The notes under the pieces: generated by a model
Databases searched by the model: none
What the model was told of the DNA's origin: nothing
What the model saw: the letters and a program-made list of their open reading frames with translations, nothing else
In this document: piece after piece, positions 15,404 to 38,719 of the stretch
How the letters are laid out: each line of letters starts with the position of its first letter
Position numbering within the stretch: position 1 is the stretch's first letter
Made by a program: the position numbers and the translations under genes
Assembly: GCA_016219965.1 (NCBI GenBank)
Contig: JACRJM010000007.1
Coordinates: 372,294 to 436,293 of the forward strand
Source of the DNA: Candidatus Schekmanbacteria bacterium
GTDB lineage: Bacteria > Schekmanbacteria > GWA2-38-11 > J061
DNA length: 64,000 bases
Reading direction: 5' to 3'

Positions 15404-16807
15404 ATGGCACGAATCGCATTCTTACAGAATTTCTGGTATGAATTTTTAGGCACCATGTATATCTCAGCTTTGCTGAAAGATAGGGGGCATACCTGCGAGG
15501 TATTTATTGAATCCGGAGAGAAAAACTTCACAGAAAGCATAACTCGCTTCAAACCTGACCTCATAGGCTTTTACACGACAACCGGCACTCATGGCTGGGC
15601 ATTATCGAGAGCTTCGAAACTAAAGAAATTAACCGGAAGCCGCGTTATCCTGGGAGGTCCGCATCCAACATTTTTTCCTGAAGTCATAGAGAATGAAGCT
15701 GTAGATATCATATGCATGGGTGAAGGAGAGTATGCCATGATCGAGCTTGCAGAAAGGTTAGACAGCGGGAAATCTTTCGCCGATATTCAAAACCTCCATG
15801 TAAAATCAAATGGGGCAATTACCAGAAACGATCTCAGACCTTTGATAGATGACCTTGATACCCTGCCGCCCCCTGACCGCGCGCTCTACGACAAGTATCC
15901 ATCGCTTCAGGACAATCTGAGCGTCTTTACCGGACGCGGTTGTCCCTTCGACTGCTCATTCTGTTTCAACAGACCCTACATCAAGCTTTACAAAGACAAG
16001 GGAAAGCCAATAAGGAGGCACAGCCCCCGCTGGGTGATAGAAGAATTAAAAAGGATAATAAGACTTTATAAAACGAAGTTCATACGTTTCGATGATGAGG
16101 TTTTCATCCTCAACAATAAATGGCTTACTGAATTTCTCCCCATTTATAAAAAAGAGATAGGACTTCCATTCACGTGCCTTCTCCATGTGAAGCTTGTTAC
16201 ACCTGAGGTAGTCGAATTGCTCAAAGAATCAGGATGCCAGATGGCATACTTCGGGATTGAAAGCGGCAATGAAGAAATAAGAAATGTTGCCTTGAGAAAA
16301 GGAATAAAAGAAGAGGAGATGATGAGGTCTGCCGAGCTTCTAAACAAGGCAGGCATTAAAATTGGCACATACAATATGCTTGGACTGCCCGGAGAAACTG
16401 TGGACAAGGCATTTGAAACCGTGCATATCAATCAGCGCATCGGTGTTGAATACCCGTGGTGCTCTTTATATCAGCCATATCCGGGAACAGACCTTGAAAA
16501 TTATTGCAGGGAAAAGGGACTGCTCGGAGAGGATTATTCCTGCGATTCCATATCTGCATCATTCTTTAAGAGAAGCGTAGTTGAAAACAAAGAGAAAAAA
16601 GAACTTGAGAGATTGCAGAAGCTTTTCCACATTGCCGTGCAGTTCCCAAGCCTTGAGCCGCTCATCAGGTTTGCTGTAAGGCTTCCAATCACATCGCTGC
16701 TGGACGTAATCTTCTATGCTACTTATGGGTATAGGTATATGAAGACATATAAGGTGTCGTTGTGGAGAGTTATCATCACTGGGTTGAGGTCGAGGGAATA
16801 TATCTAG
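15404..16807 (+). CDS. B12-binding domain radical SAM protein (class B rSAM)
   Basis: N-terminal cobalamin-binding-like domain followed by GRGCPFDCSFCFN (CxxxCxxC); start at MARIAFLQ rather than the ORF-track start, which overlaps pgsA. Confidence 0.85.
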   Translation: MARIAFLQNFWYEFLGTMYISALLKDRGHTCEVFIESGEKNFTESITRFKPDLIGFYTTTGTHGWALSRASKLKKLTGSRVILGGPHPTFFPEVIENEAVDIICMGEGEYAMIELAERLDSGKSFADIQNLHVKSNGAITRNDLRPLIDDLDTLPPPDRALYDKYPSLQDNLSVFTGRGCPFDCSFCFNRPYIKLYKDKGKPIRRHSPRWVIEELKRIIRLYKTKFIRFDDEVFILNNKWLTEFLPIYKKEIGLPFTCLLHVKLVTPEVVELLKESGCQMAYFGIESGNEEIRNVALRKGIKEEEMMRSAELLNKAGIKIGTYNMLGLPGETVDKAFETVHINQRIGVEYPWCSLYQPYPGTDLENYCREKGLLGEDYSCDSISASFFKRSVVENKEKKELERLQKLFHIAVQFPSLEPLIRFAVRLPITSLLDVIFYATYGYRYMKTYKVSLWRVIITGLRSREYI

Positions 16808-16821
16808 GTTAGGACATAGGC

Positions 16822-16926
16822 AAAAAGGGGACGCAACCCTTTTTTATTTGGTAAATTCAAGTTTTGTTTGCAAGAAGAAATCAATAGTTCAATAGCGCAA
16901 AAGAAAAAGGGTTGCGTCCCCCTTTT
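16822..16926. repeat. Inverted-repeat pair (~24 bp arms) separated by ~57 bp
   Basis: AAAAAGGGGACGCAACCCTTTTTT at 16822-16845 and its reverse complement GAAAAAGGGTTGCGTCCCCCTTTT at 16903-16926; each arm is itself a weak A-run/GGG/loop/CCC/T-run hairpin. Confidence 0.7.
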
Positions 16927-17064
16927 CTCCGTCTCCGGATTCCCGCTTTTGCGGGAATCTTCAGAGAGTATATTTAGGGAAATCTTTTTTATGTATCTTT
17001 TTTAAACTTTGGCCATTGATTGTAACCAACTTCTGGATTATTCGATTCATATTGAACTGGTGTT

Positions 17065-17090
17065 ATAAAAAACGGGCGCTGTCCCTATTT
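17065..17090. repeat. 26-bp direct repeat, copy 1 (TAAAAAACGGGCGCTGTCCCTATTTT)
   Basis: Identical 26-mer recurs at 17631-17656; the pair brackets the small secreted-protein gene. Confidence 0.8.
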
Positions 17091-17347
17091 TCCCCTATTT
17101 TCCCATGTCCCCCTTTTCCAAACAAAATTTTTTTAATCTGCAAAAAAATTTGCACCATACAAAACCTGATCAAGAACCATTATTTTACCACGGATAAAAA
17201 TTATCTCATTATTTCAGCTAGATACCATCAACCAGAATTAGCCCTACTGATTGGAATGATAATTGCAAAATCATAAGGCAACGGGCAGCGAAGAACAAAC
17301 ATTAAAGCAGCATGAACTTCCATTAGCTTTAATGAGGAGGCAGAAAA

Positions 17348-17569
17348 ATGAAACACATGAAGAAAATGTTGGCTATAATATTATTATCTTTAGCAACAAT
17401 GATTGTTTCCGCAGAAGACACCAGCAAGATTGTTCCCAAGTGCATCCAAATTATCAAAGACAGAAAAGCTCCACCTAAGACAGACTGCGAAAGCTGCCAC
17501 ATATATTGTAAGGGACAGATTGAAATAGTAGAAAAATTTTTAAGTAAGTTAGGAGACTCAAAAAAATGA
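17348..17569 (+). CDS. Small secreted cysteine-rich protein (73 aa), unknown function
   Basis: Strong RBS GAGGAGG 7 nt upstream of ATG; N-terminal signal-peptide-like segment MKKMLAIILLSLATMIVSA; five Cys in the mature part (CIQ..CESCHIYC). Confidence 0.5.
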   Translation: MKHMKKMLAIILLSLATMIVSAEDTSKIVPKCIQIIKDRKAPPKTDCESCHIYCKGQIEIVEKFLSKLGDSKK

Positions 17570-17630
17570 ATAGAGGAAGACACTGGATTCCAGCTTTCGG
17601 GTCAATGACAAGAATTTCGGCAAACTCAAC

Positions 17631-17656
17631 TAAAAAACGGGCGCTGTCCCTATTTT
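17631..17656. repeat. 26-bp direct repeat, copy 2
   Basis: Exact copy of 17065-17090. Confidence 0.8.
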
Positions 17657-17685
17657 TTTTAACACCAAAAATTGAAGTTGCCCCC

Positions 17686-18498
17686 TTAATTCATGCTGCC
17701 GCGTCGATAGCCTTCCAGGTCCAGTGCAACATACTTAAACCCAATAGCCTTTAATTTCTCTATCACCTGATGCCGGGTTTCCTTATCCATCATTTTCTCG
17801 ATTGCGTCCTTTTCAAGCTCTATCCTTGCTATTTCTCCATGATGGCGGACGCGAAGCTGTTTAAACCCAAGCTCTCTCAATACTCTCTCGGCGTCATCTA
17901 CCATGAGGAGCTTTTCGCGGGTAATGTCCGTGCCATAGGGAAAGCGAGATGAAAGGCACGCCATCTCAGGTTTGTCCCATGTCGGAAGGGAAAGCTTTTT
18001 TGAAAGATATCTTATTTCTTCCTTGTTGAGCTTTGCCTCGCAGAGCGGGCTTACAACTCCAAGCTCGCATGATGCGCGCATGCCGGGCCTGTGGTCGCTT
18101 GTAATATCATTGAAGTTTGTCCCGTCTGACACAAGGGCTATACCTTCTTTTTCAGCAATCTTCTTTAACTGCGAGAAAAGTTCGTACTTGCAGTAATAGC
18201 ATCTGTCCGGGGGGTTTTCCCTGAACTGAGGTATGTCAACCTCGCCTGATTCGATAAGTACCTGCCTTACTCCTATCTGGGATGCCATTTTTTTCGCTAT
18301 CTCAAGTTCCTCTTTCGCGTATGTTTCTGAGAGTGCAGTGACAGCGAGCACTTTGTCACCGAGAACATCCTTTGCGACTTTTAACAGGAACGTACTGTCC
18401 ACACCTCCTGAAAAAGCAATAAGAAGACTCTTGTATCCTAATAGGATTTTTTTCAGATCATCAAATTTCTTTTCTGTTTCAGTAACATTTATATCCAT
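17686..18498 (-). CDS. LarE-like PP-loop ATP pyrophosphatase (TIGR00268-type)
   Basis: PP-loop LIAFSGGVDSTFLL and overall LarE/ATP-utilising-enzyme pattern. Confidence 0.7.
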   Translation of the reverse strand: MDINVTETEKKFDDLKKILLGYKSLLIAFSGGVDSTFLLKVAKDVLGDKVLAVTALSETYAKEELEIAKKMASQIGVRQVLIESGEVDIPQFRENPPDRCYYCKYELFSQLKKIAEKEGIALVSDGTNFNDITSDHRPGMRASCELGVVSPLCEAKLNKEEIRYLSKKLSLPTWDKPEMACLSSRFPYGTDITREKLLMVDDAERVLRELGFKQLRVRHHGEIARIELEKDAIEKMMDKETRHQVIEKLKAIGFKYVALDLEGYRRGSMN

Positions 18499-30099: not shown

Positions 30100-30262
30100 G
30101 CACCAAAAATAAAAAAACCGGAAACCTAAAAGGTCCCGGCTATTATCAATAAGGCAAATCTTTGCTCCCTTCGCTGGCATTACCCAGATCAGGTTCAAAG
30201 GGTCACCCCGCAAACCGGGATTTCTCAGCCCTCATCAGGCTCCCCTAACAACCGCATATTAG
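30100..30262 (-). ncRNA. TPP (THI-box) riboswitch with terminator-type expression platform
   Basis: Minus-strand reads UAGGGGAGCCUGAUGAGGGCUGAGAAAUCCCGG..ACCCUUUGAACCUGAUCUGGGUAAUGCCAGCGAAGGGA, matching the conserved THI-element core (CUGAGA, ACCUGAUCUGG, UAAUGCCAGCG, AGGGA); followed by CCGGGA..UUUCCGG hairpin and U7 before the thiS start. Confidence 0.85.
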
Positions 30263-38530: not shown

Positions 38531-38540
38531 ATAAAAAAAA

Positions 38541-38612
38541 GGCGGCATCCGGACTCGAACCGGAGAATAACGGTTTTGCAGACCGCTGCCTTAGCCACTT
38601 GGCTATGCCGCC
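38541..38612 (-). tRNA. tRNA-Cys (GCA)
   Basis: 72-nt cloverleaf on the minus strand GGCGGCAUAGCCAAGUGGCUAAGGCAGCGGUCUGCAAAACCGU..GGUUCGAGUCCGGAUGCCGCC; anticodon loop CUGCAAA. Confidence 0.9.

Positions 38613-38642: not shown

Positions 38643-38719
<77 letters not shown>

Follow-up and report, generated by a model that had tools for sequence, protein, structure and literature searches.

Repeats in an intergenic spacer of Candidatus Schekmanbacteria are probably REP-type elements linked to RAYT-like HUH/Y1 transposases

Introduction

In a 64-kb stretch of DNA from Candidatus Schekmanbacteria (hereafter the window, meaning the whole stretch that was analyzed), a B12-binding radical-SAM gene with its stop codon at 16807 and a convergent larE gene with its stop at 17686 enclose a spacer of 878 nt (16808-17685), in which a gene for a protein of 73 amino acids (aa) lies among two exact copies of a 26-nt repeat and a pair of inverted repeats. 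What are these repeats, and do they carry the gene that they surround? The initial annotation, which had put the gap at ~880 bp, likened the 26-mers to weak bidirectional terminators and proposed that they mark a miniature mobile or recombined unit with a secreted peptide, such as a bacteriocin-like toxin or signal.

Here, we present evidence that the spacer is very probably a cluster of repetitive extragenic palindromic (REP)-type repeats, comparable to a bacterial interspersed mosaic element (BIME), in which each of two repeat families is the terminal inverted repeat (TIR) of its own clade of HUH/Y1 transposases of the REP-associated tyrosine transposase (RAYT) type. The cluster contains one inverted doublet of the family that we call REP-2, two single copies of the family that we call REP-1 (the 26-mer), and tail fragments of both (17092-17118). 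The repeat-rich spacer also houses the 73-aa gene, which the repeats do not carry.

Results

REP-1 is a short repeat dispersed between genes in several phyla

The REP-1 sequence, TAAAAAACGGGCGCTGTCCCTATTTT, occurs exactly twice in the window, both times on the (+) strand (17066-17091 and 17631-17656), and no match was found in shuffled sequences even at three mismatches. Both copies had been recognized as exact in the initial annotation, where the first was taken to start at 17065, one nucleotide too early. Copy 1 is identical to the repeats that bracket RAYT-type genes in loci L017 and L011 (see below) and has one to four mismatches to those of L028-L034. It is followed on the same strand by a re-iterated REP-1 tail (CCCCTATTTT, then CCCAT; 17092-17106) and by a REP-2 tail fragment, GTCCCCCTTTTC (17107-17118). 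Copy 2 separates larE from the convergent 73-aa open reading frame (ORF) and is 29 nt away from the stop codon of larE; its counterpart in a relative (L020:3401-3424) has other immediate flanks.

An exact search for the 23-nt core of REP-1 in one genome per GTDB species revealed 22 copies in 18 stretches from six other genomes. Specifically, 13 copies were found in the closed 3.4-Mb metagenome-assembled genome (MAG) Deltaproteobacteria bin23 (CP070770), 5 in another deltaproteobacterial MAG, and one each in Ca. Scalindua rubra, a Nitrospirae MAG, and two further genomes. The flanks are unrelated between copies, even inside one genome, so that the conserved unit is only ~24-26 nt long. All but one of the copies (21/22) are located between ORFs, in either orientation; many stand 6-75 nt past a stop codon or in the gap of two convergent genes, and the neighbors are ordinary housekeeping genes (e.g., LptF/G, ABC transporters, and CoA ligases).

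The part of REP-1 that is best conserved across variants is GGGCGCTGTCCCTATTTT. Its tail, CC(C)TATTTT, is often iterated one or more times behind the unit, as seen in the window and in L004, L013, L018, and L019, possibly through slippage or repeated cleavage and rejoining. In two Brocadiales loci (L028:2189-2290 and L029:1221-1320), about eight tandem iterations of CTATTTCCTA stand behind the downstream repeat of a transposase gene. We found one perfect inverted doublet of REP-1, in L010. In two deltaproteobacterial MAGs, REP-1 lies in the same orientation 3′ of orthologous response-regulator/PilZ genes that are 74% identical (L007:5691-5713 and L013:7019-7041), which suggests that the copy at this site is old and was inherited vertically there. 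A search of IMG/VR with the 23-mer gave 0 matches, and a phage origin was rejected for this reason; a literature search for the repeat motif strings returned human primer matches or nothing.

REP-2 forms inverted doublets of a single geometry

In the window, REP-2 is represented by a reverse copy (16822-16844, AAAAAGGGGACGCAACCCTTTTT on the (+) strand) and a forward copy (16904-16926, AAAAAGGGTTGCGTCCCCCTTTT), inverted with their tails outward and separated by 59 nt. Together they form a REPIN-like doublet of 105 nt (16822-16926; REPINs are REP doublets forming hairpins) that starts 15 nt past the radical-SAM stop codon. The inverted-repeat pair reported here initially is real: the arms are 23 nt long with one mismatch (0 such pairs expected) and can be lengthened to 48 nt, over which their complementarity is 77%. 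The predicted fold of the doublet has an energy of -25.4 kcal/mol as DNA (z score -5.8) and -47.6 kcal/mol as RNA (z score -5.4), and a single REP-2 unit can form an 8-pair A/T-rich stem. Aligned without gaps, forward REP-2 (GGGTTGCGTCCCCCTTTT) and the conserved part of REP-1 are equal at 12 of 18 positions, with the common core GTCCC(C or TA)TTTT.

A metagenome scan with the 21-mer AAAAGGGTTGCGTCCCCYTTT, taken from the forward copy, matched at least 120 loci. Allowing one mismatch in the 13-nt core, we counted at least 239 REP-2 copies in these loci, and the G+C content of the hosts ranged from 32 to 74% among the matches listed. REP-1 was not found in the REP-2 loci listed (≥120). At least 69 close doublets were present; among the loci listed, 69 of 69 had the reverse copy followed by the forward copy (-/+) and 0 had the (+/-) order, both orders being equally foldable. 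Together with its spacer, the 105-nt doublet is present twice in L020 and also recurs at two unrelated sites, L122:2081-2180 and L056:152-239; it therefore behaves as a unit, as a REPIN does. By a crude six-frame ORF test, 22% of the REP-2 copies in low-GC loci fell inside ORFs, compared with 67% of random positions; in high-GC loci the same test is uninformative, since 95% of random positions are inside long ORFs.

The same genome was also assembled independently from short reads, and the resulting Logan contig (SRR12113407_14837; L001) starts inside the doublet, at window position ~16892, which is consistent with a multi-copy or palindromic doublet stopping the assembler. The doublet would thus account for the breaking of short-read assemblies at the spacer.

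Both repeat families bracket RAYT-type transposase genes

An all-versus-all comparison of the ORFs near REP-1 copies revealed one protein that recurs beside the motif in two phyla. In a deltaproteobacterium (L017), a 224-aa gene lies between inverted exact REP-1 copies, and a 227-aa homologue that is 57% identical is likewise enclosed by inverted REP-1 in a Nitrospirae MAG (L011). Both proteins exceed the cut-off of Pfam Y1_Tnp (E-values of 4e-12 and 3e-14, respectively). E. coli TnpA-REP (4ER8) is the best relative of solved structure, its HmH and YIyiNP motifs aligning with their HuH and catalytic Tyr motifs, and their best NCBIfam model is the REP-associated tyrosine transposase (66-67 bits versus 18-22 bits for IS200). 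The family comprises 2,696 homologues at E≤1e-20, nearly all of ~221 aa, with Nitrospirota, Brocadiales, and Thermodesulfovibrionales as the named sources.

We examined seven REP-1-type transposase loci, including four additionally fetched members, from Brocadiales, Nitrospirota, Thermodesulfovibrionales, and Deltaproteobacteria. In all seven, the ~221-aa gene is located inside inverted REP-1 copies, with AAAATAGGGACAGCG[A/C]C…TTTT upstream and …G[C/T]GCTGTCCCTATTT directly past the stop codon, and in most of them a TTGACA-like box follows the upstream repeat. Homologues of the transposase also occur in ~10 of the REP-2 loci listed. Inverted REP-2 copies stand on both sides of the gene in L085, L144, L064, L039, and L137; the window's reverse copy is found letter for letter upstream of the gene in all of these but L064, where it has one mismatch. 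The L110 contig stops within the transposase gene, and the sole visible flank carries REP-2. The geometry of a REP-2 doublet is that of the transposase-bearing element minus its gene.

Next to these two families, a third variant (AAAAGGGGACAGGTTA / TAACCTGTCCCCTTTT) brackets the transposase gene of L123, and L144 (260-1747) holds two tandem RAYT-type genes that are ~40% identical, the first with REP-2 and the second with a REP-1-like variant, TAGGGACACATCCC. This tandem pair is a compact natural example of enzyme and repeat varying together. Identity among the transposases was 54-81% within the REP-1 enzymes and 50-83% within the REP-2 enzymes, compared with 41-54% between the two groups, and the motifs NHVH, WQ, and YVE[R/N/L]NP were present in 11 of 11 REP-1- and REP-2-associated proteins. 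The loci fetched from Deltaproteobacteria bin23 included a single copy of the transposase gene, and no tnpB was found beside the transposase gene in the eight loci with listed gene calls. A plasmid vehicle was rejected: a REP-2 doublet had no match in PLSDB, and plasmid homologues of the transposase reach only 31-38% identity.

Candidatus Schekmanbacteria itself appears among the sources of the REP-2-type enzyme. The transposase of L085, a locus from the same Joint Genome Institute (JGI) sample as the window's closest relative, falls into a cluster at ≥90% identity with MBI5374698.1, a "transposase [Candidatus Schekmanbacteria bacterium]" on a 658-kb contig. The 73-aa protein of the window is MBI5375797.1 (locus tag HZA77_10200, Candidatus Schekmanbacteria, 516-kb contig). 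The two accession numbers are 1,099 apart, so they likely belong to the same MAG, and the window's own MAG probably encodes the REP-2-type transposase MBI5374698.1.

Differences from a relative begin or end at repeat copies

The closest relative, L020, whose DNA is 92-93% identical to that of the window, has the same gene order, a larE protein that is 96% identical, and the 73-aa gene at the same place. Where the window has 16808-17347, L020 (3667-6135) carries ~2 kb of extra DNA between the 73-aa gene and the radical-SAM gene, with three ORFs that are absent from the window. These encode a 221-aa HEPN-like protein (RNNADH motif; below cut-off in Pfam, with HEPN at E 2e-4 and DUF4145 at E 1e-3), a 48-aa protein, and a protein of 259 aa that matched no family and no PDB entry. 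Each of the three is bordered by REP-1 or REP-2 copies. PADLOC reported nothing for these extra genes, and the extra DNA may be a small defense-type islet in a repeat-bounded hot spot.

The extra DNA of L020 also contains two more REP-1 copies, two degenerate ones, and a second doublet, in which the left REP-2 arm has been swapped edge to edge for REP-1. A complete REP-2 (L020:3897-3919) stands at the point where the window has the tail fragment at 17107-17118, which is where homology to L020 resumes. Upstream of copy 1, the window retains a remnant (16985-17056, (-) strand) that matches L020 5021-5093 at 90% identity, where the relative's extra segment has the 3′ part of the 48-aa ORF. Beyond point mutations, all differences between the window and L020, i.e., every indel breakpoint, start or end at or next to a repeat copy, as expected for repeats that are cut and rejoined or that recombine. 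The comparison comprises two sequences, from which the ancestral arrangement is not readable. In the more distant relatives L022, L024, and L027 (larE 73-78% identical), the small gene is absent, and synteny changes directly past larE.

The 73-aa gene lies among the repeats and has no homologue beyond its own site

The 73-aa ORF (17348-17569, (+) strand) lies among the repeats and belongs to neither family. It is preceded by a Shine-Dalgarno-like GAGGAGG (17334-17340, (+) strand), 7 nt ahead of the ATG, and begins with a hydrophobic, signal-peptide-like segment ending in VSA (…MIVSA|ED). The protein has four Cys (positions 32, 47, 50, and 54), two of them in a CXXCH motif (CESCH). Beyond the signal-like segment it contains neither Met nor a second His, the residues from which the distal ligand of a c-type cytochrome would come. 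The ORF, the hydrophobic N-terminus, and the strong ribosome-binding site (RBS) described initially were all recovered, with four rather than five Cys. Judging from its RBS, signal peptide, and in-frame conservation, the ORF is plausibly a real gene. Compared with L020, 5 of 222 nt differ (two synonymous and three nonsynonymous changes), too few for an inference on selection. Local identity to L020 spans 89-97%; the ORF region, with 96.5-97.9%, is at the upper end, and other 200-nt bins are equally conserved; a recent transfer of the gene, proposed from excess conservation, was rejected because these bins match its identity.

No homologue of the 73-aa protein was found among 5.8 billion clustered proteins, or by an exhaustive HMMER search of 1.8 billion representatives, except the L020/L021 copy; with no homologue elsewhere, nothing indicates past movement. 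Below threshold, the protein matched multihaem cytochromes (cytochrome c7, E 0.006, 17 bits versus a cut-off of 120; tetrahaem 2A3M, E 0.016), and a single-sequence AlphaFold model gave a small two-helix hairpin of weak confidence (predicted local distance difference test score [pLDDT], 65.8). No toxin, bacteriocin, or immunity signature was detected in it with Pfam, NCBIfam, or PADLOC. The CXXCH is the only motif found, and a bacteriocin or toxin role is unsupported. The gene is a lineage-specific orphan that possibly encodes a small secreted Cys/haem-binding protein.

Other features of the spacer and the window

A perfect hairpin, placed at 16938-16960 in the initial annotation, is located at 16938-16959, with a 9-bp stem (GATTCCCGC and GCGGGAATC) and a TTTT loop. 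It folds at -10.9 kcal/mol as DNA (z score -5.1), lacks a U-tract, and lies outside both repeat families. It is unique within the window and all fetched loci and is missing from L020; it sits in a 58-nt window-specific segment with the doublet on one side and the remnant of the 48-aa ORF on the other. A 62-aa ORF called in the Logan annotation (17566-17754, (+) strand) runs through REP-1 copy 2, overlaps the 3′ end of larE on the opposite strand, has no family match, and is probably spurious.

At gathering scores, Rfam identified only a thiamine pyrophosphate (TPP) riboswitch and two tRNAs in the whole window. These, the sole Rfam/ARAGORN features, are the riboswitch at 30149-30256 ((-) strand, 68.1 bits) and the adjacent tRNA-Cys(GCA) and tRNA-Gly(GCC) at 38540-38612 and 38647-38719 (both (-) strand). 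With no tRNA genes near the spacer, a tRNA or transfer-messenger RNA (tmRNA) fragment or an attachment (att) site was rejected. At E≤10, the interval 16600-17900 yielded only microRNA-precursor models on the long hairpin, far under their thresholds, so that no RNA family fits. A promoter/terminator scan gave counts that were not above those of shuffled sequences.

Discussion

A probable transposase-linked repeat cluster and what speaks for and against it

We observed directly that the repeats are dispersed, biased toward extragenic DNA, and placed around a transposase gene; that repeat type follows transposase clade; that doublets have a single geometry; and that the window and L020 form mosaics that differ at repeat edges. 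For the process behind this pattern, the biochemistry of TnpA-REP and of IS200/IS605 (PMC3479197, PMC8266576) provides a model. By analogy, a single-copy transposase would recognize the repeat in single-stranded DNA and would cut and rejoin at repeat edges, so that singles and inverted doublets come to populate intergenic DNA, mainly right behind genes. The resident copies could then act as breakpoints for deletion, insertion, and the swapping of units. In such a scheme, the fixed tail GTCCC(C/TA)TTTT may be the common part for recognition or cleavage, and the inner 6-7 nt (GGGCGCT, GGGTTGC, or TAACCT) the clade-specific part. That the enzymes are catalytically competent and active at present is likewise a reading by analogy. 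It is also possible that the doublet terminates or stabilizes the radical-SAM transcript.

Several points weigh against this explanation. Neither the 64-kb window nor L020 contains a transposase gene of the RAYT family, a cognate REP-1 transposase was not found for the window's lineage, and the assignment of MBI5374698.1 to the window's MAG is inferred from the organism name and nearby accession numbers only. The window has two REP-1 and two REP-2 copies in 64 kb, all in one spacer, so the families are not abundant in it. REP-1 alone folds at -1.9 to -3.5 kcal/mol (z scores of -0.3 to -1.2), no better than shuffled sequences, and neither family has the classical GTAG head. The enzymes score 66.1, 67.2, and 67.6 bits with NF047646 (REP-associated tyrosine transposase), by far their best model, which is under its cut-off of 80. 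The extragenic bias of REP-2 is supported crudely and in low-GC loci only, and such repeats are not known to be transposed by this transposase subclass. The conclusions on conservation and on the enzymes come from exact-match scans and about a dozen transposase loci.

Alternative explanations

The proposal of a miniature mobile or recombined cassette, with the two direct 26-mers as its ends and a gene for a secreted peptide (perhaps bacteriocin-like or a signal) as its cargo, has evident attractions, in that exact direct repeats flank one small gene, the region is rearranged between close relatives, the gene is missing from L022, L024, and L027 with a synteny shift right past larE, and the ORF region is at the top of the local identity range. 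We nevertheless consider it very improbable. The 26-mer stands alone with unrelated flanks in six other genomes, where the 22 copies of its core are often just past a stop codon; the direct orientation is unlike that of all transposase-bearing elements and of the REP-2 doublets (69/69 among the loci listed); and the bins around the ORF are as conserved as the ORF itself. The 73-aa protein, which carries none of the signatures sought, occurs elsewhere only at the same site in the one relative that has the gene. A common motif behind genes, combined with a gene kept in place, is essentially the outcome that the initial annotation had named as refuting its proposal. The part on miniature mobile DNA holds: in other genomes, both repeat families do bracket a RAYT-type Y1 transposase gene. 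Another view would make the repeats attC-type sites between promoterless integron-like cassettes, consisting of the 73-aa gene and the HEPN-like and 259-aa genes of the relative, and the small unrelated genes of L020 are indeed each bordered by repeat copies. However, the repeats measure 23-26 nt, whereas attC is an imperfect palindrome of 57-141 nt with RYYYAAC…GTTRRRY core sites; a GTTRRRY core is absent on either strand, the genes lie in both orientations, and the associated enzyme is an HUH Y1 transposase instead of an IntI tyrosine recombinase, which leaves this view with almost no probability.

Could the repeats instead be host-selected sites, i.e., intrinsic terminators or operators for a conserved DNA-binding protein, with an incidental link to the transposase? 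An A-run, a G+C core, and a T-run give them the appropriate shape, and they are found just 3′ of genes or between convergent genes. Our scan labeled 16822-16844 as terminator-like, the REP-2 doublet makes a very stable RNA hairpin, and roles of REP elements in termination and mRNA stabilization are reported (PMC3733652, PMC2817692). Yet REP-1 has no significant structure, so that the weak bidirectional terminators of the initial annotation are reduced to an A-run/T-run look. Unlike convergent terminators, exact 21-23-mers occur across several phyla in hosts of 32-74% GC. The repeats follow genes in both orientations, repeat type tracks transposase clade, and only one of two equally foldable doublet geometries is used (69 versus 0 among the loci listed). 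We therefore consider independent host sites very unlikely, and a secondary role of the doublet as a terminator is compatible with the transposase-linked cluster as well.

Implications

For the window, a speculative toxin cassette is replaced by an ordinary explanation. The repeat system is of an already known type and unusual only in the breadth of its exact sequence conservation. The results place RAYT-type repeat systems in Candidatus Schekmanbacteria and in other candidate or poorly cultured phyla, and the two exact sequence tags GCGCTGTCCCTATTT and GGGTTGCGTCCCC locate such elements in metagenomes. Locally, the spacer is a hot spot of gene gain and loss, in which the relative has a HEPN-like gene and two genes of unknown function between the same repeats. 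A fixed tail combined with an inner module that tracks the transposase clade amounts to a natural experiment on how an HUH transposase reads single-stranded DNA.

What is noteworthy is that repeats of 21-23 nt agree letter for letter across phyla, in hosts of 32-74% GC and with enzymes that are 50-57% identical, apparently in a branch thought to be without REPs. That branch, the least studied among RAYTs (TIRYT / subclass 2.1; compared below), thus appears to bear dispersed repeats. A broader generalization, which we put forward tentatively and think somewhat more apt to fail than to hold, is that TIRYT/subclass-2.1 RAYTs maintain REPIN-like populations in many uncultivated phyla (Nitrospirota, anammox Planctomycetota, Desulfobacterota-type lineages, and Schekmanbacteria), with repeats kept identical while the enzymes diverge to that degree. 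If so, one option would be frequent transfer of transposase and repeats across phyla, contrary to a strictly vertical picture of REPIN-RAYT systems; the other would be a code of protein-DNA recognition that is unusually rigid and in which an inner module of 6-7 nt can be exchanged before the fixed tail.

Comparison with known systems

Rho-independent (bidirectional) terminators resemble the repeats in their position past stop codons or between convergent genes, in their A-run and T-run flanks, and in the strong hairpin of the REP-2 doublet. They differ in that REP-1 has no stable stem and in that sequence, not structure, is conserved across phyla. An intrinsic terminator also has a stable G+C-rich stem-loop followed by a U-tract, whereas the U-run behind the doublet has only four residues on the (+) strand and five on the (-) strand. 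With IS200/IS605 elements and their derivatives resembling miniature inverted-repeat transposable elements (MITEs), the enzymes here share the catalytic fold and Pfam Y1_Tnp, and the elements share short ends that are able to survive without the gene. In contrast, the IS200 model gives the enzymes 18-33 bits compared with 66-68 bits for the RAYT model, their Tyr motif is Y---NP rather than Y---Q, and the ends are symmetric inverted repeats instead of distinct left and right subterminal hairpins.

The likeness to REP/REPIN-RAYT systems, i.e., REP/BIME with TnpA-REP in E. coli and the REPINs of Pseudomonas fluorescens (PMC2817692, PMC3116915, PMC3479197, PMC8266576), is closer. Here, too, repeats of ~20-26 nt populate intergenic DNA singly, in inverted pairs, or in clusters; inverted copies of the same repeat stand on both sides of a Y1/HUH transposase gene; a doublet with its spacer recurs at unrelated sites; and the enzymes have the HuH motif, the catalytic Tyr, and the class-2 signature Y---NP. 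Unlike in classical REPs, there is no GTAG: REP-1 has ATAG before GGGAC and REP-2 has AAAG/AAGG. REP-1 is also not measurably palindromic, and the enzyme is below the NCBIfam RAYT cut-off. For classical REPIN-RAYT systems, lineage specificity and vertical inheritance are described (bioRxiv 10.1101/2022.05.22.493013), whereas exact repeats are common here to several phyla with hosts of 32-74% GC.

Judged from sequence features, the closest described kind is the TIRtron with its TIRYT gene, RAYT subclass 2.1. As described by Di Nocera et al. in 2013 (PMC3733652), TIRtrons are TIRYT genes flanked by TIRs with a common GGGGWSAS, and some of these TIRs are dispersed in moderate abundance as families that include single copies, dimers, and larger groups. 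The elements here likewise consist of a RAYT-like gene flanked by terminal inverted repeats instead of classical REP hairpins. At the level of the consensus only, GGGGWSAS is fitted at 8 of 8 positions by the L123 variant (GGGGACAG) and at 7 of 8 by both REP-2 (GGGGACGC) and REP-1 (AGGGACAG). TIRYTs have been equated with TnpA-Y1 subclass 2.1, which is Group 1 of Bertels (PMC6006769, PMC5581495). Proteins of subclass 2.1 measure ~238 aa, carry NHVH / W[EQ] / YIELNP, and end in a tail with an "SS" motif (PMC6006769, Table 1); a C-terminal HTH-like extension is a further mark of the subclass. By motifs and length compared with that table only, the enzymes here are similar, with NHVH / WQ / YVE[RNL]NP, a "WSS" tail, and ~221-238 aa.

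The earlier surveys found no REP-like sequences near subclass 2.1 genes (PMC6006769) and only a weak repeat association for Group 1 (PMC5581495). The repeat families of this RAYT type have been described as few in number and confined to lineages. In contrast, every gene examined here has REP-like repeats, and these are dispersed, in hosts that lie outside those surveys, i.e., uncultivated Nitrospirota, Brocadiales, Desulfobacterota-type, and Schekmanbacteria MAGs.

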